NCBI GenBank assembly: GCA_001782805.1
Contig: MFPT01000004.1
Location: 41,294-105,293, forward strand
Reading direction: 5' to 3'
Origin: Candidatus Magasanikbacteria bacterium RIFCSPHIGHO2_01_FULL_41_23
GTDB lineage: Bacteria; Patescibacteriota; Patescibacteriia; Magasanikbacterales; UBA922
DNA: 64,000 nt
The position numbers were made by a program, and so were the translations under genes. The notes under the pieces were generated by a model. It was given only the letters and a program-made list of their open reading frames with translations, had not been told where the DNA came from and did not search any database. Shown one piece after another: positions 845 through 64,000 of the stretch (positions within the stretch are counted from its first letter, which is position 1; each line of letters begins with the position of its first letter).

Positions 845-884
845 ATAACTATAATTTCAATATCGATTTAATAATAAATTTATT

Positions 885-1203
885 TTCTAAGTTTTAAGCA
901 AAATTCGTTTATCCTAAGTCTTAATCAAACTTCACTGATCCTCTTTTTTTCAACTGATAGTCTGACGGATTATGCATTCTCAGTAAGTCAATATACTCAG
1001 CTTTCAGAAAAAGAGGATTCAGTTCCAGTTTGTTTATTAGTATATTGGATGTTTCGCTGTTGCAATGCGAGACAGGGTTTAATCTTTGAAGCAAACTGGA
1101 GTGAGATCTTTTTCTCGATGCCCGAGCACGGTCGAGGGTCGAGAAAAACGGTCTCACGAAGTTTGCTTACGTGTTAGCAAAAAGGAATTTTTATTTTGAA
1201 TTC
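885..1203. repeat. Mosaic MITE-like intergenic repeat, copy A (TIR CTAAGTCTTAA[G/T]CAAA ... TTTGCTTACGTGTTAG)
   Basis: Shares long near-identical blocks with copies at 8050-8420, 24441-24800, 40362-40723 and 59590-59920 (inverted). Contains the imperfect hairpin tttttctcgatgcccgag...ctcgacc(c)tcgagaaaaa. Confidence 0.8.
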
Positions 1204-2117
1204 TTTAAAATGTTTAAAAATATTTTAAGGAATAGAAATATTTTATATGGTAATTTTCTAATCGGTAATTCAAAAGCTTGGCCGTGTGTTAAGCGCGTTC
1301 CCCCAAATCCGCTTTTAAATCGTGTAATTCCCGACCACGGATGATCTGCTTCGGCATTTTCCGGAGCCACGCCCCAAAAATCATAAATCTTGAATCCTTT
1401 TTCTTGAGCACGCAGAATCGCTGACCACTGTAATAAATACGGCGCCATAGTTTCCCGATGCGCGTTCGCGGACGCGCCATGCAGATATGTGTATGTTTCG
1501 CCATACTCAATAAAAATCGCGCTGGCCAATGGCTCATCATCCAAATAAACCGTGACTTGTTCAGTCAAATTACATGTCAACATTTTTTCATAATAATCAT
1601 TATTATGTGCGCCAAATTTATCGCGCCTGCTGGTTTCAGTCAGCAATTGATTAAAAACGATCGCATTTTTTTCCCAAGAAATAATTAAATTCTTTTTTTC
1701 CGCCAAACGAATATTATAGCGAGTTTTCGAGTGCATCTGAGTCAATAAATCTTCTTCCTTTTTATTTAAATCCAAAATCAGACTATGTTCTGGCTGTCGA
1801 TGTTTAACAACTTTTGCTTGTGAAGATAATGTTGGAAGTGCGGACAATGATTCAATTCTTATAAAAACAATTTTATTTTCCTTTTTGACAAATTCAACTA
1901 ATAATTCATAATCAGTTACAGCCAAATCAGCCTGCGGAATATACCAAAAAACGCCAACAAGCAAACGATGAACAAAAATTTGCACCGGTTTATCATTAAC
2001 CAAAAACCGCCGTGGCGTATTCCCCACGCTTGCCTGAAATTCTCCCCATTCCCAAGATTGCAAAAAACTCTTGGAACACGGCCATTCTGGCTTATCAAAA
2101 ATCTCAATAATGGACAT
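1191..2117 (-). CDS. FemAB-family peptidoglycan interpeptide-bridge aminoacyltransferase
   Basis: 308 aa with FemABX-type GNAT-like fold signatures (YLHGASANAHRETMAPYLLQW). The 3' end and stop codon lie inside repeat A. Confidence 0.7.
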   Translation of the reverse strand: MSIIEIFDKPEWPCSKSFLQSWEWGEFQASVGNTPRRFLVNDKPVQIFVHRLLVGVFWYIPQADLAVTDYELLVEFVKKENKIVFIRIESLSALPTLSSQAKVVKHRQPEHSLILDLNKKEEDLLTQMHSKTRYNIRLAEKKNLIISWEKNAIVFNQLLTETSRRDKFGAHNNDYYEKMLTCNLTEQVTVYLDDEPLASAIFIEYGETYTYLHGASANAHRETMAPYLLQWSAILRAQEKGFKIYDFWGVAPENAEADHPWSGITRFKSGFGGTRLTHGQAFELPIRKLPYKIFLFLKIFLNILKNSK

Positions 2118-2911: not shown

Positions 2912-3673
2912 ATGCCAATCACTAGTTATTTGGAAAAAAAATTCCCGGCTCTGGAAAAAAAAATTGGCGTTGCTTTTCGCAATCCGGATTTGTTGGTGCA
3001 AGCATTGGTGCATCGGTCATTTTTAAATGAAAATAGAAATTTTCCTTTGGCGCACAATGAACGACTGGAATTTTTGGGTGACGCGGTGCTGGAATTAATC
3101 GTCACTGAATTTCTGTTTGAAAATTATCTTAATCCCGAAGGTGAATTGACGAATTGGCGCGCGGCTTTGGTAAATGCGAATATGTGCGCAGTCGTGGCGC
3201 AAGAAATTGATTTGGAACCATATCTTTTTTTGAGTCATGGCGAATCCAAAGACGCCAACACTAAAGCACGCGGATATATTTTGGCCAATGCACTTGAAGC
3301 AGTGATTGGCGCAATTTATTTGGATCAAGGATCGGAAATAGCCAAACAATTCGTCACTCGTTGGGTTTTGACCAAATTGCCGGAAGTTTTGGAACTTGGT
3401 TTATGGATGGATCCCAAATCGCGCTTTCAGGAAGGCGCGCAAGAAGTGGTGGGAATCACGCCAACATATCGAGTTCTCAAAGAAGAAGGTCCGGATCATG
3501 AAAAAAATTTCGTCATTGGCGTATATCTGGGCAAAGAAAAAGTCGCGGAAGGATTTGGCACGAGCAAACAAGAAGCGCAAACTGATGCCGCGGAAAAAGC
3601 CTTGCGTATCAAAGGCTGGAAAGGCCCGAAAGTTGATATTATAACCAGAACACAAACCGATCCAATTGGTTAA
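2912..3673 (+). CDS. rnc: Ribonuclease III
   Basis: 253 aa. RNase III catalytic signature ERLEFLGDAVLEL, plus a C-terminal dsRBD region. Confidence 0.9.
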   Translation: MPITSYLEKKFPALEKKIGVAFRNPDLLVQALVHRSFLNENRNFPLAHNERLEFLGDAVLELIVTEFLFENYLNPEGELTNWRAALVNANMCAVVAQEIDLEPYLFLSHGESKDANTKARGYILANALEAVIGAIYLDQGSEIAKQFVTRWVLTKLPEVLELGLWMDPKSRFQEGAQEVVGITPTYRVLKEEGPDHEKNFVIGVYLGKEKVAEGFGTSKQEAQTDAAEKALRIKGWKGPKVDIITRTQTDPIG

Positions 3674-8019: not shown

Positions 8020-8049
8020 AATTAAATTTGAAAAAATACTTTTTTTCTG

Positions 8050-8420
8050 AATCTTAAGAAAAATTCTTCTTTGCTAAATCTTAAGCAAATTTCATTCGTA
8101 CTAACTCTTAAGCAAAATTCGACGATATCCTTTTGTTCAACTGATAGTCTAACGGATTATGCATTCTCAACAAGTTATCATACTCAGCTTTCAGCAAAAG
8201 TATATTCGTCTCCATTTTGCTTATTAGTTTAGTCGAATGTTTCGCTGTTGCAATGCGAGACAGGGTTTAATCTTTGAAGCAAACTGGAGTGAGATCTTTT
8301 TCTCGATGCCCGAGCCTGTTTACCCTAAGCTTGTCGAAGGGTCGAGGGTCGAGAAAAATGGTCTCACGAAGTTTGCTTACGAGTTAGCAAAGAGGAATTT
8401 TTATTTTAATTTCCTTAATG
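8050..8420. repeat. Mosaic MITE-like intergenic repeat, copy B (TIRs CTAACTCTTAAGCAAA / TTTGCTTACGAGTTAG; three tandem half-sites at left end)
   Basis: Near-identical to copy C over ~170 bp and to copy A over the hairpin module. Ends with ggaatttttattttaatttccttaatg, shared with the groESL spacer element. Confidence 0.85.
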
Positions 8421-17860: not shown

Positions 17861-17981
17861 AAGTGTGTTGATTAAAATAAAAATGGAATCCCGACAAGTC
17901 GGGATAAACTCCTGTAGCTTTTTTGAGCCCGATATTTATGAGGGTCTCAGAAAAAGATTTGCAGTGAATTTTTATTTTAAT
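17861..17981. repeat. Type-2 MITE-like element (TIR TTAAAATAAAAAT, internal palindrome ATCCCGACAAGTCGGGAT) inserted in groES-groEL spacer
   Basis: About 95% identical to 43738-43860. A partial copy lies at 47031-47075. It widens the normally short groES-groEL gap to ~155 nt. Confidence 0.8.
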
Positions 17982-17994
17982 TTCCTTAATGAGT

Positions 17995-24427: not shown

Positions 24428-24440
24428 ATAATAAATTTTT

Positions 24441-24800
24441 TCTAAGTCTTAAGCAAACTTAGTTTATTCTAACTCTTAAGCAAAATTCAACGATATCCTT
24501 TTCTTCAACTGATAGTCTAACGGATTATGCATTCTAAACAAGTCATCATACTCAGCTTTCAGCAAAAGTATATTCGTCTCCATTTTGCTTATTAGTTTAG
24601 TTGAATGTTTGGGTGTTGCATTAGGGTAATTTCAGTAGTAGGTAATTTTGTTTTTCAGTAATGTGTATGAGCTTTCTTACTACTTACTTGGTTAAAGTAG
24701 ATTTAATATATCAATAAGGATAGAAACTAGGGAGAGGAGAAGAATAGCGAGTTTTACTGAAAAGAAAATTACCTACTACTGAAATTCAGTTGATTTAAAT
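24441..24800. repeat. Mosaic MITE-like intergenic repeat, copy C (left TIR plus a 180-bp inverted-repeat module)
   Basis: Left half is nearly identical to copy B. Right half (24610-24790) is nearly identical to copy D 40510-40690. It contains a ~33-bp inverted repeat aatttcagtagtaggtaattttgtttttcagtaa ... ttactgaaaagaaaattacctactactgaaatt. Confidence 0.85.
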
Positions 24801-30462: not shown

Positions 30463-32292
30463 TTATACCTCAATCACCACCGGCAACACCATAGGACGTT
30501 TTTCAGTTTTAGTATAAATATATTGTCCAATTTTGTCGCGGATATCATTCCGAATTTGATTGGTATCCGCCCAACTACTGGGATTGGATTCAATGACCAT
30601 TTTTTTCACTTTGTGACGAATGTCTTCAATTAATTCTTTGTTATCTTTTAAGAATACAAAGCCGCGCGAAATAATATCGGGATTTTGCAACAACGTTCCG
30701 CGTTTGGAATCAACGGTCGCAATCACCACAATCATGCCATCTTCGGCCAAAACCTGACGATCGCGCAAAACCACGTGTTGCGTATCACTGATTCCCAGAC
30801 CATCCACAAACACATAATCAGTAATAACTTTTTTGGGCAAAACGCGAATGCCATTGTGATCCAATTCAATGACTGTACCATTATCCGGCACAATAATTTT
30901 TTCTTCCGGCATACCATTCGCAATCGCGAGCGAACGCGCTTCTTTCAAAAAATAATGATTGGCATACACGGGCATAAAATACGTTGGCTTCACTTGATTC
31001 AACATTTCCACAATATCCCGTCGCGTGGCATGACCCGATATATGCACATCCATTAAATCGCCATGAACCACATGATCGGATTGACGATAGATATTGTCTT
31101 TTAAACGCTGAATGGAACGTTCGTTGCCCGGAATGATGGACGAAGAAAAAATAATCGTGTCTTTTTTGCTTAATTTAATACTCCGATGTTCACCACTTGT
31201 AATTCGTGACAGAACTGCTCTATCCTCGCCTTGCGCGCCCGTGCAAATTACCACTACTTTATCTTCCGGAAAATCACTGATGGTTTCTGTTTCGATCATT
31301 ACTCCTTTGGGTACTTGAATATAGCCTAATTTTTTGGCGATTTCAATATTCATTTTCATGCTATAGCCGTCAAGCGCGACTTTTTTACCGAGTTCACTGG
31401 CCGCTTGGATAATCCATTTAACCCGTTCCACTTGAGAAGAAAAAGTCGCCACAATCACGCGTCCGGGCGCCTGACTGATAACGCGATGCAAATTAGCATA
31501 CATTTCATTGTACGTGCCGTGACGTTTTTCATTGGTCGCGCCCAAACTTTCCAACATCAGCACAGTTGGTTTGGCCAAATTAGCCAGCTGTTCATAGCGC
31601 ACATGTGTATTGCCATCAACATCGCGTTCCATGGTCCAATCGCCCGGATGAATCGCGGATCCGGCGGGAGTTTCAATAATTGTTCCCATGGAATCCATAA
31701 TAGAATGTTCAACTTGAAAAAAACCCATAGTGATTGAGCCCAATGCTATGCGCTGATCCATGGATGAAACCGAAATTGTTTTTAATTTTTTGCTCGAACC
31801 TTTCTGATAATCTTCCATGCGATGCTTAATGAGCGCGAGCGTCAGTGGCATGGCAATGATTGGCGGATAGCCTAATTTTTCCAATAAAATCGGCGCGGCA
31901 CCAATATGATCAAGATGACCATGACTAAATGCAATGGCGCGAATCCGTTTTTCTTTTCCCTGCAGATATTTGATGTTCGGAATAATATAATCAATTCCGG
32001 GCATGTCTTCTTCGGGAAATTGCAAACCCATATCAAGAATTACAATATCCTGACCATACTCGTAAACGGTCATATTGCGTCCGACTTCTTCACAGCCGCC
32101 AATGGGAATTATGCGCAAAGCATTGGGGTTGCCGGTTTCTTCAGTTCCACCAACCACACCAAAAACCGGGGGGCGAACTTGATTAAAATTTCGGCCTCCG
32201 CGATTATGAATCGGTGGGCGAGCTCCGGCACGATTGCCGGAACGACTGTCCTGGCGACGAAAAGGCGCGCCGGAATTTGATTGTCGTATCAT
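30463..32292 (-). CDS. rnj: Ribonuclease J with Arg/Gly-rich N-terminal extension
   Basis: Metallo-beta-lactamase HGHLDHIGA, beta-CASP and RNA-metabolising C-terminal domains. Disordered RG-rich N-terminus of ~55 aa. Confidence 0.9.
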   Translation of the reverse strand: MIRQSNSGAPFRRQDSRSGNRAGARPPIHNRGGRNFNQVRPPVFGVVGGTEETGNPNALRIIPIGGCEEVGRNMTVYEYGQDIVILDMGLQFPEEDMPGIDYIIPNIKYLQGKEKRIRAIAFSHGHLDHIGAAPILLEKLGYPPIIAMPLTLALIKHRMEDYQKGSSKKLKTISVSSMDQRIALGSITMGFFQVEHSIMDSMGTIIETPAGSAIHPGDWTMERDVDGNTHVRYEQLANLAKPTVLMLESLGATNEKRHGTYNEMYANLHRVISQAPGRVIVATFSSQVERVKWIIQAASELGKKVALDGYSMKMNIEIAKKLGYIQVPKGVMIETETISDFPEDKVVVICTGAQGEDRAVLSRITSGEHRSIKLSKKDTIIFSSSIIPGNERSIQRLKDNIYRQSDHVVHGDLMDVHISGHATRRDIVEMLNQVKPTYFMPVYANHYFLKEARSLAIANGMPEEKIIVPDNGTVIELDHNGIRVLPKKVITDYVFVDGLGISDTQHVVLRDRQVLAEDGMIVVIATVDSKRGTLLQNPDIISRGFVFLKDNKELIEDIRHKVKKMVIESNPSSWADTNQIRNDIRDKIGQYIYTKTEKRPMVLPVVIEV

Positions 32293-40319: not shown

Positions 40320-40361
40320 ACTTCTAGTAATAAAACCTCGTCTTTATTAACTCATAAAGAC

Positions 40362-40723
40362 TCCGTTTCCTAAGTCTTAAGCAAACTTCGTGAGACCATT
40401 TTTCTCGACCCTCGACCCTTCGACAAGCTCAGGGTAAACAGGCTCGGGCATCGAGAAAAAGATCTCACTCCAGTTTACTTATTAGGTATATTGAATGTTT
40501 CGGTGTTGCATTGGTGGGGAATTTCAGTAATAGGTAATTTTCTTTTTCAGTAATGTGTATGAGCTTTCTTACTACTTACTTGGTTAAAGTAGATTTAATA
40601 TATCAATAAGGATAGAAACTAGGGAGAGGAGAAGAATAGCGAGTTTTACTGAAAAGAAAATTACCTATTACTGAAATTACTGTTGAATTGATGTAAGTTG
40701 TAACTTATTTTAATTTCCTAAAT
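40362..40723. repeat. Mosaic MITE-like intergenic repeat, copy D (TIR + inverted hairpin module + 180-bp inverted-repeat module), inside uvrA 3' UTR
   Basis: Hairpin module is the reverse complement of that in copy B. Right half is nearly identical to copy C. A terminator hairpin follows at 40746-40774. Confidence 0.85.
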
Positions 40724-40745
40724 GTTTTTAGGATAAATAAAAAAT

Positions 40746-40774
40746 CCTCGTGATAAGCGGGGATTTTTTATTCC
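40746..40774 (+). terminator. Rho-independent terminator of uvrA transcript
   Basis: aaaaaatcctcgtgataagcggggatttttt: 7-bp stem with one G-U pair, then a T-run. Confidence 0.6.
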
Positions 40775-40805: not shown

Positions 40806-41400
40806 GGTGGACGAGGCAGCTTCGTCCGTGTTCTCCTTGTTGGTTGTTGTGTGAACCGGAACTTTCATCACTGCCGCCCACCGAAGTGGGTGATGAAAGT
40901 GCGGCGCCGAACGAGGCCGCTACTCGATGTGCTGAACGCCGAAGACGATGATCCGGATCTCCGAATCCTCGGTCGTCGTCGCCGGCCGCTCGATCGGGAT
41001 GTCGGCGTTGATCGCGTCCTGGAGGAGCTTGGTCGCCGCCTCCACAGGAAGACCCTGACCGACCGACGAGGACATCATCGAGATGGCGTCGGCCAAGCAG
41101 GCGATCCGCAGGCTCTGCGCGCAGAACGGGCTGTGGAAGTACCCGCTCTCGTAGCGGTAGCCGTGGGTCTCATCCGCCGACAACTTCTTGCTCCGGATGA
41201 TCTCGGCGATCTTGCCCATGTTGGGCGCCAATCGCTCGCCGACCAGCCGGATGAAGCCCGCCCCGATCTCGACGATGTCGATCCCGTGGTTCACGACGGC
41301 CAAGCCCACGGCCGTGTTCAGGTCAGCGCGGGTCCAGACCCGGCCGACCTCCTCGTCGTCGACCATCACGACGCCGTACCGGACGCCCAAGAACCCGAAC
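40806..41400. other. GC-rich (~60+% GC) compositional island in a ~40% GC genome; probable horizontally acquired DNA
   Basis: Abrupt switch from A/T-rich to G/C-rich sequence with GC-rich third codon positions. The frames on the opposite strand are Arg/Asp-rich junk, as expected for the antisense of high-GC coding DNA. Confidence 0.8.
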
Positions 41401-41453
41401 AACTTACACTTGTTGTTTTCCTCGAAAAAGAGCCCTTTCATGATGTTCTCCAT
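40920..41453 (-). CDS. Hypothetical 177-aa protein of foreign (high-GC) origin
   Basis: Single coherent ORF MENIMKGLFFEENNKCKLFGFLGVRYGVVMVDDEEVGRV.... The first ~20 codons are AT-rich and the rest GC-rich. I cannot assign a family from memory. Confidence 0.55.
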   Translation of the reverse strand: MENIMKGLFFEENNKCKLFGFLGVRYGVVMVDDEEVGRVWTRADLNTAVGLAVVNHGIDIVEIGAGFIRLVGERLAPNMGKIAEIIRSKKLSADETHGYRYESGYFHSPFCAQSLRIACLADAISMMSSSVGQGLPVEAATKLLQDAINADIPIERPATTTEDSEIRIIVFGVQHIE

Positions 41454-41612
41454 GTCTATGTTTTGATTATCGATTGCTCGATACCCTCGTCATCAATAAC
41501 ATTTCTGGTTTTGGTTTTGTTGAGGGGAGAGAAAAGACGATTGTTCATCTGCTTTCTGCCCAACACAATTGGGCACATTTAATCAGAGAGAGAGAGAATT
41601 GTCAATAGAGAC

Positions 41613-41647
41613 AAAAAAAATCCCCCGATTATTTGGAGGATTTTTTG
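41613..41647 (-). terminator. Rho-independent terminator of rplS (bidirectional-looking)
   Basis: aaaaaaaatcccccgattatttggaggattttttt. Confidence 0.7.
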
Positions 41648-43719: not shown

Positions 43720-43737
43720 TATTCTTACATGTGTATT

Positions 43738-43860
43738 GATTAAAATAAAAATGGAACCCCGACAAGTCGGGATAAACTCCTTAAGCTTTTTTGAGCCCGA
43801 TATTTATGAGGGTCTCAGAAAAAGATTTGCAGTGAATTTTTATTTTAATTTCCTTAGATG
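43738..43860. repeat. Type-2 MITE-like element, second full copy (immediately 3' of tRNA-Arg)
   Basis: About 95% identical to 17861-17981. Confidence 0.8.
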
Positions 43861-44216: not shown

Positions 44217-44225
44217 TTCTTCTCA

Positions 44226-44258
44226 TAAAAAATCCTCCTATAAATCGGAGGATTTTTT
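44226..44258 (+). terminator. Rho-independent terminator (serves micropeptide gene; also faces convergent PHP gene)
   Basis: aaaaaatcctcctataaatcggaggatttttt: 8-bp perfect stem. Confidence 0.75.
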
Positions 44259-46283: not shown

Positions 46284-47033
46284 TCACACGGACGTTGTTC
46301 CAATATATTCAATATCTTCCGGAGTCAATCGTCGGATCCCTTCATCGTTAGTTATTTCTTCAACAATATGGGCAACGAGTCCGGGAACGCGGGCAATTAC
46401 AAATATACCATTTCCTATGCGCGCGTCAAAGCCCATATCACAAAGAATTGCCGCAATCGCGCCATCAACATTCAGTGGAAGTTTTTTGGATGAAATTGAA
46501 TTTAATCCGATTTCAATTTTTTGGGCAAACGTCGCATACTGACCATATATCCCAGTTTCTTTGGCAATTTTAAACAATGCTTGCGTACGCGGATCAACTG
46601 CAAAAATTTTGTGACCAAATCCGGACGCATATTCTTTGCGTTCCTTCATATTTTTAAGAAGTGCTACGATATCAGACTCGTCAACATGATCATAAAAAAA
46701 TTTCATCGCCGGTTCAACTACCACACCATGCCGACCACCCAGTCCAAGCAAACCGGCCGCAACCGAAGTGTGCAAATCATTTTTGGCCGAAGCCGAAATT
46801 CGGGCGTTCATCGCCGAACTTGTTGCCGGACCATGATCAATGATCGCGGTAAAAATGGCATTCATCATTTTTGTTTGTTCCGAAGTCGGTAAATGACCTT
46901 TCAAAATCAAAAAAATTGTTTCGACAAAAGTTTTGTTGGCAATTAAATCCGCCAAATTATGTCCACGAATAATTTCCGTGCCGTCGGTTTGAATGTTCGT
47001 GATTGCGGTTTTGAATTTCATATTAATTGTCAA
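46284..47033 (-). CDS. Citrate-synthase-like protein (citryl-CoA lyase-like / ATP-citrate lyase C-terminal-domain-like)
   Basis: 249 aa. Citrate-synthase catalytic motifs SGFGHKIF (GxGHxV His) and VDPRTQAL (DPR Asp). No full-length citrate synthase large domain. Confidence 0.6.
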   Translation of the reverse strand: MTINMKFKTAITNIQTDGTEIIRGHNLADLIANKTFVETIFLILKGHLPTSEQTKMMNAIFTAIIDHGPATSSAMNARISASAKNDLHTSVAAGLLGLGGRHGVVVEPAMKFFYDHVDESDIVALLKNMKERKEYASGFGHKIFAVDPRTQALFKIAKETGIYGQYATFAQKIEIGLNSISSKKLPLNVDGAIAAILCDMGFDARIGNGIFVIARVPGLVAHIVEEITNDEGIRRLTPEDIEYIGTTSV

Positions 47034-47077
47034 AATAAAAATGGAATCCCGACATGTCGGGATTATTTTAATCTAAA

Positions 47078-58517: not shown

Positions 58518-59540
58518 CTATTCCCCAAAATATTCGCCTTTACTGGCCAAACCATTCATTTTTGCCCTTTTATAGAATTCAGCTTGAGCCGCTGTTATAT
58601 TTTCCGATTTTCCACCCCATGTTTTTAAAACAGAAGTCTGCAAAGCCCGACCATACGAAAAGCTCAACACCCATGGCGTATTATCCTGCGCAGATGTATC
58701 ACCTTTCATGGCATTAATCGCCTGCAAATTGGCCGTCGCCTCAACTTCACTTTGACCGCCGGACAAAAATACAATTCCGGGAACTTGGGCCGAAACATTT
58801 TCGTGCAAACATTGCAAAGTCAATCGCGCAATTTCTTCGGCAGAACTTTTGATCGATTCACTGCCCGCAATCACCATGTTTGGTTTGAGCAAAATTCCCG
58901 GCAGATAAACACCGGCCTCATTTAATTTAGCAAAAACTGTTTTTAAGACTTGGCTCGTAACTTCGTAGCAGCGTTCAATCGTATGTCCGCCATCCATTAA
59001 AACTTCCGGCTCGACAATCGGCACAATATTATTTTGCTGACACAACAAGGCATACTGAGCCAATTGCTCAGCATTTTTTTCTATACATAACTCAGTGGGA
59101 ATTCCCTCGCCGATTGTTATTACTGCTCGCCATTTGGCAAATTTGGCAGCAAAACCAGCATATTGTTTCAATCGTTCATCCAATCCCTCTAAACCTTTGG
59201 TAACCAGCTCCAAGAGAGATTCGGACATCGGTTCAGTACCAAGATCAACTTTAATTCCCGGAAGAATTCCTTTTTTTTCTAAAACAGAAACAAAAGTATG
59301 GCCATCATTCGCCCGCTGTTTTATGGTTTCATCAAATAAAATCACGCCGCTAATAAATTCTTCAATTCCTGAAGTCGTAAACAATAATTCGCGATACGCG
59401 CGACGATTATCTTCGGTTGATTCCACATTAATTTTCGCGAAACGCTTGGTAATGGTTCCGGTACTTTCATCCGCAGCCAAAATTCCTTTTCCCGGAGCAA
59501 CTAATTGTCGCGCAATTGATTCTAATAATTCTTTGTTCAT
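58518..59540 (-). CDS. fba: Fructose-bisphosphate aldolase, class I
   Basis: GKGILAADESTGT motif and Schiff-base Lys region. Start at MNKELLES. Confidence 0.85.
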   Translation of the reverse strand: MNKELLESIARQLVAPGKGILAADESTGTITKRFAKINVESTEDNRRAYRELLFTTSGIEEFISGVILFDETIKQRANDGHTFVSVLEKKGILPGIKVDLGTEPMSESLLELVTKGLEGLDERLKQYAGFAAKFAKWRAVITIGEGIPTELCIEKNAEQLAQYALLCQQNNIVPIVEPEVLMDGGHTIERCYEVTSQVLKTVFAKLNEAGVYLPGILLKPNMVIAGSESIKSSAEEIARLTLQCLHENVSAQVPGIVFLSGGQSEVEATANLQAINAMKGDTSAQDNTPWVLSFSYGRALQTSVLKTWGGKSENITAAQAEFYKRAKMNGLASKGEYFGE

Positions 59541-59589
59541 ACTTAATTTAAAATAAAAATTCACTATTCTGTTCATTCGGTTGTCACCA

Positions 59590-59920
59590 TATCAGTCATC
59601 GCCGCTCGCTCGCAGATGGATTCAGTGAATGGCTCACTCACTACATTGTCCGCTCGGCTTTGATTATATATAGTATAGATTCAGCCTCGCGTCCAAACGT
59701 GCGCTGACTGACATGAATGCCAACCTCACTAATGCAACAGCGAAACATTCGATATACTGAATAAGCAAACTGGAACTGAATCCTCTTTTTCTGAAAGCTG
59801 AGTATATTGACTTACTGAGAATGCATAATCCGTCAGACTATCAGTTGAAAAAAAGAGGATCAGTGAAGTTTGCTTAAGACTTAGAAAACGAGGCTTGACT
59901 AAGTCTTACGAAAAAAATTA
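59590..59920. repeat. Mosaic MITE-like intergenic repeat, copy E (inverted relative to A; ends in a TIR-TIR pair)
   Basis: Reverse complement matches copy A over ~230 bp at ~90% identity. Right end is tttgcttaagacttag-N14-ctaagtcttacg. Confidence 0.85.
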
Positions 59921-59933
59921 TTCATTAACAATA

Positions 59934-62209: not shown

Positions 62210-62570
62210 ATTTGAATCTCTTTTATCCCGCCGAAGTCCGAAGGACAAAGGCGGGGTTTTGTTTAGGATTTGGGTAATTAAAGCCCTGTACGGGCTTGAA
62301 AAGCACAACTAAGTGCTTCTGTAGTGTTGGGTCAATTAGTACGCCTCGGCATACACCTAGCGCCTATCAATCTGGTCGTCTACCAGAGACCTCATAACGA
62401 ATATTAATCTTAAGAACGGCTTCGCACTTAGATGCTTTCAGCGCTTATCCGTGCCGAACTTAGCTACCCAGCTATGCCTTGCGGACAACTGGCACACCAG
62501 AGGTTCGTCAATCCCGGTCCTCTCGTACTAGGGATTGGTTCTCTCAATATTCAACGCCCACAGCAGATAG

Positions 62571-62622
<52 letters not shown>

Positions 62623-62635
62623 TGGCGAACAGCCA

Positions 62636-62666
<31 letters not shown>

Positions 62667-62681
62667 CGATGAGCCGACATC

Positions 62682-63037
62682 GTACTTTGTTCCACAGTTT
62701 CTTGTGGCGTAGACTATATCTTCTTCTTGCTCTGGATGGTAGCGGATGCCGACAAGTCGGCACGTGATCCGCGTAATCTCAGTTTGACTGTGCAAGAGTC
62801 GGCGTGTTGTCTCTCCTGATCATTAATCAGGAAAAACCTCCCCTTTCGGGTCAGTCGTTACGGGGTTATCCCGACATTGTCGGGAAACTTCCCACGGTAT
62901 TGCCGGGTGATTGTGGGTCAATCACTGACGGGTTCACCGTTATAAGCCGAATTTGTGTCTCTTAATCTATCTAAATTTAAAATTTTAACGAAAAGAATTG
63001 GGATAAACATTACTGTTTGTGCACCCCGATATGTTAA
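62682..63037 (-). mobile_element. ORF-less group I-type intron in 23S rRNA at the peptidyl-transferase centre (about E. coli position 2500)
   Basis: ~355-nt insertion between exon sequences GGCACCU and CGAUGUCGG. Contains group I S-element-like AAGAAGATATAGTCTAC and R-like GAGATTA. Confidence 0.7.
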
Positions 63038-63571
63038 GGTGCCAAACCGCGCCGTCGCTGTGGACGCTTGGGCGCGATCAGCCTGTTATCCCCGGAGTAG
63101 CTTTTATCCGTTGAGCTTCCGCCGTCCTATATCGTACGGTCGGATCACTAACTTCCGCTTTCGCGACTGATCGGGTGGTAGCCCTTTCAGTAAAGCTGGC
63201 TTTTGCGTTTGCACGTCCAGTCCGATTTCCATCCGGACTAAGCCAACCTTTGTAAACGCCTCCGTTACATTTTGGGAGGCAACCGCCCCAGTTAAACTAC
63301 CCATCAGATACTGTCTCTCTATCCTGATTCAAGGACAAAGATTAGATACATCGCTACGCAAGGGTGGTATCTCACTGACTCCCGACTTTCGTCGGGATCC
63401 CACCTATGCTGAACAAGCGAAGCAATGCACCAATATCAAACTATAGTAAAGCTTCACGGGGTCTTTTCGTCTAGTTGCGGGTATGTCGCATCTTCACGAC
63501 ACTTGCATTTTCGCCGAGTACATCGTCAAGACAGTCCACTCATCATTATGCCATTCGTGCGGGTCGGAACT

Positions 63572-64000
63572 CCAAATTGTGTTAACTCCGCGTTCCCACG
63601 GAGATCAGACTATACTTTCATCTTACTCACAATCTTTAGGAGATTTCCCTTATCATATTGTCTTGCGCCCATATTATTCATAGAGTACGCAACGTCAATA
63701 ATTTTACAAATTCCGTTTTGGGAAAGGTGGATACGCTGTTTCATTAACTCGCAAACTAATTTAAACTGTTCAAAATCTGAACGTTTAGAAGTTCGGATTG
63801 GAAACAAGTTAAAGTGCGGGATAATCTTTTTTACAAGATCAGCCAAACTTCTGACTTCGTACTTCCATGTTCTGTCGCGTTTATTAAAACGAATTGTTCC
63901 GCAGTTAAAAAACCGCTGAATTTCTTTAAGAATGTTTTTACTTCTCTCATGTTGACTGACTGTAAAAGCCGGTCTAACTTCAAGTCCTATTTTCATTCTT
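63572..64000 (-). mobile_element. Second 23S rRNA intron (about E. coli position 1917-1951), carrying a LAGLIDADG homing-endonuclease ORF; 5' part beyond window
   Basis: Exon sequence AGTTCCGACCCGCACGAATGG resumes at 63571. The upstream side does not match conserved CCUUGUCGGGUA but is coding. Confidence 0.7.
63610..64000 (-). CDS. LAGLIDADG-family homing endonuclease (C-terminal part; N-terminus with LAGLIDADG motif lies beyond window)
   Basis: SQHERSKNILKEIQRFFNCGTI...IIPHFNLFPIRTSKRSDFEQFKLVCELM matches the I-CreI-type core following the LAGLIDADG helix. Confidence 0.7.
   Translation of the reverse strand, partial: RMKIGLEVRPAFTVSQHERSKNILKEIQRFFNCGTIRFNKRDRTWKYEVRSLADLVKKIIPHFNLFPIRTSKRSDFEQFKLVCELMKQRIHLSQNGICKIIDVAYSMNNMGARQYDKGNLLKIVSKMKV

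Follow-up and report, generated by a model that had tools for sequence, protein, structure and literature searches.

In BOX elements of Streptococcus pneumoniae, a short subunit repeated in tandem a varying number of times separates conserved modules with complementary ends, and Correia elements possess an IHF site and are associated with short target duplications. REPs and BIMEs have also been defined (PMC2817692), a REP being an imperfect palindrome of 20-40 nt that is tagged at one end by GTAG or CGTC (PMC3733652), as have REPINs (PMC3116915). QMITE1 of Coxiella burnetii has an IHF site and short target duplications (PMC5896051).

How do the repeats considered here compare with these families? 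The window, a 64,000-nt stretch of the genome of Candidatus Magasanikbacteria bacterium RIFCSPHIGHO2_01_FULL_41_23, contains five intergenic copies (A to E, Table 1) of 340-400 bp each, delimited by blastn and find_repeats, which sum to ~1.9 kb, or 2.9% of the window. All five had been located at or near these positions in an initial annotation, and nhmmer profiles for each module recovered exactly the same five copies in the window, without weaker ones. We consider that they are probably lineage-specific, non-coding, interspersed, palindromic mosaic repeats (MITE/BIME/BOX-like) of Candidatus Magasanikbacteria, a member of the CPR.

Like the BIMEs of E. coli and its relatives (PMC2817692), the elements are intergenic, non-coding mosaics of palindromes that vary in order and orientation, are present in multiple copies and form hairpins that could be transcribed within operons. 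Unlike BIMEs, whose REP units have a tag and a linked RAYT, they have hairpins of 80-170 nt, lack the tag and are found where no RAYT was seen; nothing in BIMEs corresponds to their tandem 27-bp end units. With REPINs (PMC3116915) they share inverted pairs of a short repeat that form a hairpin as the replicating unit, and the existence of sequence populations within one genome, whereas REPINs are REP doublets served by one RAYT and the units here are much longer, with no RAYT detected. The likeness to BOX is architectural only. Both are modular with tandem subunits, intergenic, structured and devoid of a transposase of their own, but here the tandem subunit is found at one end, whose terminus it copies, the hairpins are interchangeable (X or Y, then Y, Z or W) and the host belongs to the CPR; a sequence relation to BOX is not expected. 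Like the Correia elements of Neisseria and QMITE1 and QMITE2 of Coxiella burnetii (PMC5896051), whose proposed effects are on transcription and RNase processing, the elements are small non-coding inverted repeats that are dense in a small genome, adjoin or overlap gene ends and occur in full-size and truncated forms. Unlike in Correia elements and QMITE1, to which they have no sequence similarity, no target duplication was recognised and no IHF consensus lies in a copy: WATCAANNNNTTR matched 13 sites in the window, against 7.9 expected, and none inside a copy. Identity with the Coxiella QMITEs (PMC5896051) was rejected because the UvrA homologues of this DNA are those of Magasanikbacteria; the aldolase homologues likewise place the window in this group of the Patescibacteria (CPR). 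The initial annotation had likened the repeats to BOX or Correia elements while recognising no family; the design is indeed comparable to these and to BIMEs, and no curated family in Rfam was matched.

Table 1. Positions in the window of the repeat copies and of other features mentioned in the text
Feature	Position	Strand	Parts	Flanks and remarks
Copy A	868..1208	+	units 887-913, 914-940; X hairpin type 1 914-1041; tail 1042-1067; Y hairpin 1086-1181; end motif 1185-1207	Sua5 start 844; FemAB stop 1191
Copy B	8040..8420	+	units 8047, 8074, 8101; X type 2 8101-8228; tail 8229-8255; Y 8274-8391 with 22-nt loop insertion; end motif 8395-8417	DUF4012 gene / glycosyltransferase
Copy C	24428..24800	+	units 24442, 24469; X type 2 24469-24596; tail 24597-24622; Z hairpin 24624-24786, arms ~34 bp near-perfect	81-aa ORF start 24427; PGI-like gene stop 24847
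Copy D	40324..40723	+	two decayed units 40324-40369; Y inverted 40366-40485; tail 40486-40515; Z 40516-40678; degenerate end motif 40700-40723	downstream of uvrA, stop 40319
Copy E	59541..59928	-	inverted unit 59899-59914 and one direct unit; X type 1 59757-59884; tail 59735-59756; W hairpin 59563-59734; end motif 59541-59565	aldolase ATG at 59540, immediately after the end motif
FemAB-like ORF	1191-2117	-		last codons and stop overlapped by end motif of copy A
RNase III gene	2912-3673			
RNase J gene	30463-32292			
Second repeat family	17863-17988, 43731-43856, 47032-47063			
A-run/GC hairpin/T-run sites	40737-40769, 41612-41646, 44224-44258			
GC-rich stretch	40850-41460			in the uvrA-rplS spacer
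177-aa ORF	40920-41453	-		
23S rRNA match	62328-63504	-	model positions 2046-2912 only	stops at 63504
LAGLIDADG_1 ORF	63610-63996	-		beyond the end of the 23S match

Architecture of the elements

The anatomy of the elements was read from the window copies side by side with nine further loci. At the left end stand one to four tandem direct units, spaced 25-28 bp apart and each composed of ~16 conserved bases, CTAAGTCTTAAGCAAA, plus ~11 variable ones. With up to three mismatches this 16-mer occurs 12 times in the window, against 0.54 expected, and 12 occurrences were reached in none of 100 shuffles. The units are of recognisable, ordered types that recur across copies, and they decay outward, so the outer boundaries of the elements are fuzzy. 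The first hairpin is either X (~128 nt), whose stem occurs in two subtypes around a conserved centre of 56 nt, or an inverted Y. The interiors of X and Y differ, and their ends of ~20 bp are common to both: CTAAGTCTTAAGCAAACTTC on the left and, on the right, CCAGTTTGCTTATTAG, a shorter and imperfect inverted copy of the left end that closes the first hairpin in every copy. At loci L011 and L013 the right arm of X is replaced by Y.

The first hairpin is followed by a constant tail (GAATGTTTCGCTGTTGCA; GAATGTTTCGCTGTTGCATTAG) and then by a second hairpin, which is Y forward in copies A, B and G, Z (163 nt, with ~34 bp near-perfect arms) in C, D and L014, and W (~170-210 nt) in E and at six more loci. 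Each of the hairpins X, Y and Z has inverted arms that close it. Reduced forms also occur: in copy F, Z is cut down to its arms, L008 is without the tail, and one copy consists of W only. An A/T-rich end motif (GAATTTTTATTTTAATTTCC; GAATTTTTATTTTAATTTCCTTA) usually comes last. The initial annotation had already noted the segment ending in GAATGTTTCGCTGTTGCA, the Y hairpin of A and B with its inversion in D, joints recurring at the same short motifs, and a 180-bp self-inverted unit in C and D; all of these were verified, the last as the 163-nt Z, itself an inverted repeat. W, by contrast, had not been separated as a fourth module in copy E; it extends to the true start of the aldolase gene at 59540. 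The start of the mechanically called aldolase ORF, 59576, falls within this W region, whereas the recorded protein starts at 59540.

Two features had been described more simply than the copies allow. First, the elements had been thought to be bounded by 16-bp terminal inverted repeats. A good inverted copy at the far end is present in A and B only, where the ends of the whole element form an inverted repeat of 38 bp with 82-87% identity (in B, 8056-8093 against 8368-8405, 87%); C, D and E have no inverted 16-mer at the far end, and C and D end in Z. Nor is the 16-mer a simple terminal repeat on the left, where it heads each of the tandem direct units. Second, the shared blocks had been put at 85-95% identity. 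The span is wider, 74-100%: the X core of A and E is 98% identical over 125 nt, Z of C and D 98% over 163 nt, and the tail with the left arm of Y in A and B 100% over 79 nt, while X of A and B is 74% identical.

No conserved ORF was found in the elements, which contain only short ORFs that differ between copies (Z and W by eye); the idea that they encode small peptides was dropped, these ORFs not being kept between copies.

A second repeat family was observed in the window. It is ~126 nt long, and its two full copies are 97% identical; one copy is situated between groES and groEL and another follows tRNA-Arg. Its right end is the same motif as the end of the elements, GAATTTTTATTTTAATTTCCTTA, which stands inverted at the left end as TTGATTAAAATAAAAAT. 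Beside the left end lies a GC hairpin, GGAATCCCGACAAGTCGGGAT, which resembles a two-way terminator and is also present in some W modules.

Folding, pairing and possible RNA signals

Every module folds far better than its shuffles (z -3.9 to -6.8). Folded as RNA, the hairpins reach about -20 to -73 kcal/mol, and the whole of copy B, with its ends paired, reaches -114 kcal/mol (z -6.9). In X, 93% of the stem cells pair, against ~40% when the partner is slid, and 7 of the 33 pairs are altered on both sides between subtype 1 (A and E) and subtype 2, the 56-nt centre being conserved. Because this represents essentially one evolutionary split, the covariation is modest evidence, and covariation of the arms is equally expected for inverted repeats recognised by a transposase. 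W occurs with two alternative left arms and two right arms, which pair better with their own partners (-24.3 and -20.8 kcal/mol) than when swapped (-12.8 and -10.4 kcal/mol); its core of ~60 nt is nearly invariant across seven copies. In Z, 4-7 G:T pairs are formed on one strand against 0-1 on the other, in three copies that are not independent, and X, Y and W show no such asymmetry. Deciding between RNA and DNA by G:U asymmetry was dropped, Z alone being asymmetric.

Might the elements form a structured RNA family, either sRNA genes or cis-acting leaders, with X and W as cores and the A/T-rich end motif as the terminator tract? The conserved centres with their covarying or swappable stems would fit such a family, as would the very stable folds, the T-rich motif after the second hairpin and the G:U asymmetry of Z. 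However, Rfam 15 at the gathering threshold gave no match to the copies across the whole window, and copies A, D and E gave only chance-level matches even at E values up to 10. Scans for a consensus promoter and a canonical terminator found nothing inside copies A, B and C. In addition, the copies lie in both orientations to genes whose functions are unrelated, their modules are freely truncated, deleted and swapped (as in F, L008 and the W-only copy), and gene conversion alone can give conservation within one genome. We consider this explanation quite improbable. Two other candidate signals were also rejected: an outward promoter in the unit array, since promoter-like sites lie only outside the right edges of B and C, and a tRNA-like stretch in W (GCCGAGCGG), in which ARAGORN finds no tRNA.

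Mosaic repeats of the kind that we favour may nevertheless act at the RNA level, as the initial annotation had suggested. Because the corresponding spacers are only 13-56 bp in relatives, the copies are probably transcribed within operons. The roles of REP/BIME and Correia hairpins in processing, stability and termination provide the analogy here, and it is plausible that the present hairpins could serve as such signals in operons, given the tiny spacers in relatives and the genes for RNase III and RNase J in the window. By the same analogy, the elements are candidate RNase III or RNase J processing sites that would uncouple neighbouring genes.

Separately from the elements, three sites of the window have an A-run, a GC hairpin and a T-run (AAAAAATCC...GGATTTTTT) and, from their sequence, resemble intrinsic terminators that could work in both directions; the genes on either side are convergent or in tandem.

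Distribution, empty sites and exchange between copies

Nine further loci elsewhere in the same genome carry copies, giving a total of 14 loci in the genome population. Copies F and G lie within 10 kb to the left of the window, so that seven copies occur in ~79 kb of contiguous DNA, and the right half of another copy is found on contig L039. Proteins looked up for L008, L010, L011, L014 and L015 gave exact matches in the same four NCBI MAGs as the window; the protein look-up for L012 gave no match to those MAGs, and L013 overlaps L015. The family is thus also represented on further contigs of the genome and is not a local duplication at this locus, and the genes beside the copies are housekeeping genes, not parts of a larger IS or prophage, these being the two readings that the initial annotation had set against its own. 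Searches of viral contigs, plasmids and phages revealed nothing similar to the elements.

The window is matched at 99.7-100% identity by over 20 contigs of other samples and by two NCBI assemblies, all with the same insertions; because the sampled strains are clonal and their insertions identical, there is no presence/absence polymorphism within the population. At least eight independent assemblies that are 99.9-100% identical to the window end inside a copy, which is the usual signature of a multi-copy repeat. Repeats do break assemblies, and on two contigs, L038 and L039, the flanks switch inside a copy, as might be expected if the copies were assembly chimeras or a single local segmental duplication. 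However, the same five insertions recur at 99.7-100% identity in the contigs of many samples and in two NCBI assemblies, the copies differ from one another by up to 26%, and their flanks are unrelated; an artefact of this kind is scarcely credible.

The flank switches on these contigs were seen among strains that are ~0.2% divergent, at L038:4560-4800 (sample ERZ4903125) and L039:3240-3524 (ERZ27254759). In L038, the sequence passes from the left part of G into the right part of C inside a tract of 69 identical bp, the product expected of a ~27 kb inversion between G and C; in L039, the left part of F runs into the right half of a copy not otherwise sampled. The sample that gave L038 also gave contig L043, which has the normal C junction, so that L038 could be either a minor real variant or an assembly chimera. 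The two contigs are either repeat-mediated rearrangements or assembly chimeras.

Identity between copies is patchy. A and B are poorly matched in X and 100% identical in the tail and Y, A and E are highly similar in X, and C and D in Z. Moreover, the variant blocks of W are seen in all four pairwise combinations, which indicates recombination between copies. Exchange between copies, and not nested insertion alone, explains much of the module shuffling at short motifs.

Empty sites were found in related species. The uvrA-rplS spacer, which is 1343 bp with copy D, is 42-56 bp in L003, L004 and L006 (78-80% UvrA identity), and the glpX-aldolase spacer, ~393 bp with copy E, is 13-50 bp in relatives. 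These relatives are distant (72-80% protein identity), and the spacers cannot be aligned. Searches with the module profiles found no copy in ~69 kb of distinct DNA of relatives. The empty spacers and these searches suggest that the family expanded in a narrow lineage. Exact 60-mer and 22-mer searches of GTDB species representatives gave no match and also missed the source species, so they say little about relatives.

In a more distant genome (L001, GCA_023246565.1), the uvrA-rplS spacer is 290 bp long and holds an unrelated palindromic element (L001:4100-4215) with 13-bp perfect arms, ACTGTCATTCTGG and CCAGAATGACAGT, and a 17-bp inverted repeat inside, so that hairpin repeats of their own may be present in other Magasanikbacteria as well. 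The same spacer in the window contains, together with copy D, a stretch of ~58% GC in a genome of 40% GC. The 177-aa ORF in it has no Pfam or NCBIfam match and is possibly a horizontally acquired gene.

Are the arrays placed with respect to genes? The unit array lies ~15-50 bp from a start codon in 10-11 of 15 scorable loci. When 12 loci could be scored, the unit end pointed towards the start codon downstream in a ratio of 10:2, but after copies F, G and H were added the count was 10-11 against 4, which is not significant, and an orientation bias relative to genes was dropped. The position near gene starts, together with the ordered arrays of one to four units whose types recur across copies, could indicate arrays of sites for a DNA-binding protein (operators or iterons), in which a 16-bp motif with a CTTAAG core is repeated every 25-28 bp and the hairpins are incidental. 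Yet the neighbours of the arrays are unrelated in function (Sua5, DUF4012, a TraD-like protein, acetolactate synthase and a PfkB kinase), four copies have the opposite orientation, the units decay outward like relics, and the hairpin ends are made of the same 16-bp motif. Such a role seems to us very unlikely.

Proposed spread of the elements and their significance

How might palindromic mosaic repeats of this kind have spread? In the mechanism that we propose, hairpin units with common ends would have been spread into short intergenic spacers by an end-recognising enzyme, which may be encoded elsewhere in the genome or have been lost. The ends common to X and Y are the best hint that such an enzyme once spread them. 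At present the copies would diverge chiefly through recombination or gene conversion at short motifs that they share, which would produce the shuffling of modules.

The initial annotation had called the repeats MITE-like and pointed to target-site duplications and a cognate transposase as features to look for. Several properties agree with a MITE: the copies, at 340-400 bp, are non-coding and below ~600 bp, and they are dispersed over 14 loci, two of their sites being empty in related species. However, no direct repeat was recognisable as a target-site duplication at the copy boundaries, which are fuzzy. No transposase, integrase or HuH domain was found by Pfam in window ORFs of at least 100 aa, and a cruder PHROGs scan of 65 ORFs in ~65 kb of extra loci named no transposase among the 25 of 31 matched families listed. 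Without a duplication or a cognate transposase, the MITE label is not established; what the evidence supports is a dispersed family, in a reduced genome, of modular, non-coding repeats that form hairpins.

A related possibility is that the elements are REP- or REPIN-like, being single-stranded DNA hairpins moved by a HuH tyrosine transposase of the RAYT or IS200/IS605 type, with the clusters as BIME-like mosaics. The units are hairpins and not simple inverted ends, the mosaics contain modules in both orientations with no target duplication seen, and the G:T pairs of Z are largely confined to one strand. On the other hand, the hairpins are several times longer than the 20-40 nt of a REP, no GTAG or CGTC tag stands at the hairpin foot, no Y1/HuH or other transposase domain was found in the window ORFs or named by PHROGs for the extra loci, the orientation to genes (and hence probably to replication) is not significantly biased, and X, Y and W lack the strand asymmetry. 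We regard this alternative as unlikely.

Another insertion was observed at the end of the window. The 23S rRNA match covers only part of the model, and the ORF beyond its end matches LAGLIDADG_1 (E 2.6e-18); from the sequence, the 23S gene looks like one interrupted by an intron/homing-endonuclease insertion. Insertions of this type are reported from the rRNA genes of CPR bacteria.

CPR (Patescibacteria) genomes are ~1 Mb in size and tightly packed, and in the searchable literature no description of interspersed repeat families in them was found. The palindromic mosaic family is apparently undescribed and adds to a familiar class of bacterial repeats; the principle is not new, and Neisseria, Streptococcus, Coxiella and enterobacteria have families of a similar kind. 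A bolder reading is that the elements are not decaying transposon relics but a cassette particular to this CPR lineage, functional and able to propagate itself, whose modules are structured RNA or single-stranded DNA. On this reading, either W and X would represent a new class of structured RNA or of recombinase guide or recognition sequence, or the hairpins would spread without a recognisable transposase. We hold this to be quite improbable; if it were true, the repeats would also drive rearrangement in a streamlined genome. Under the more conservative reading as mosaic repeats, they visibly fragment the metagenome assemblies of this organism, may yield chimeric contigs and may mediate rearrangements. 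Seven copies per ~79 kb would extrapolate to several dozen per genome, if this density is typical, and, if that is true, even CPR genomes tolerate or use the expansion of repeats in the spacers of their operons.
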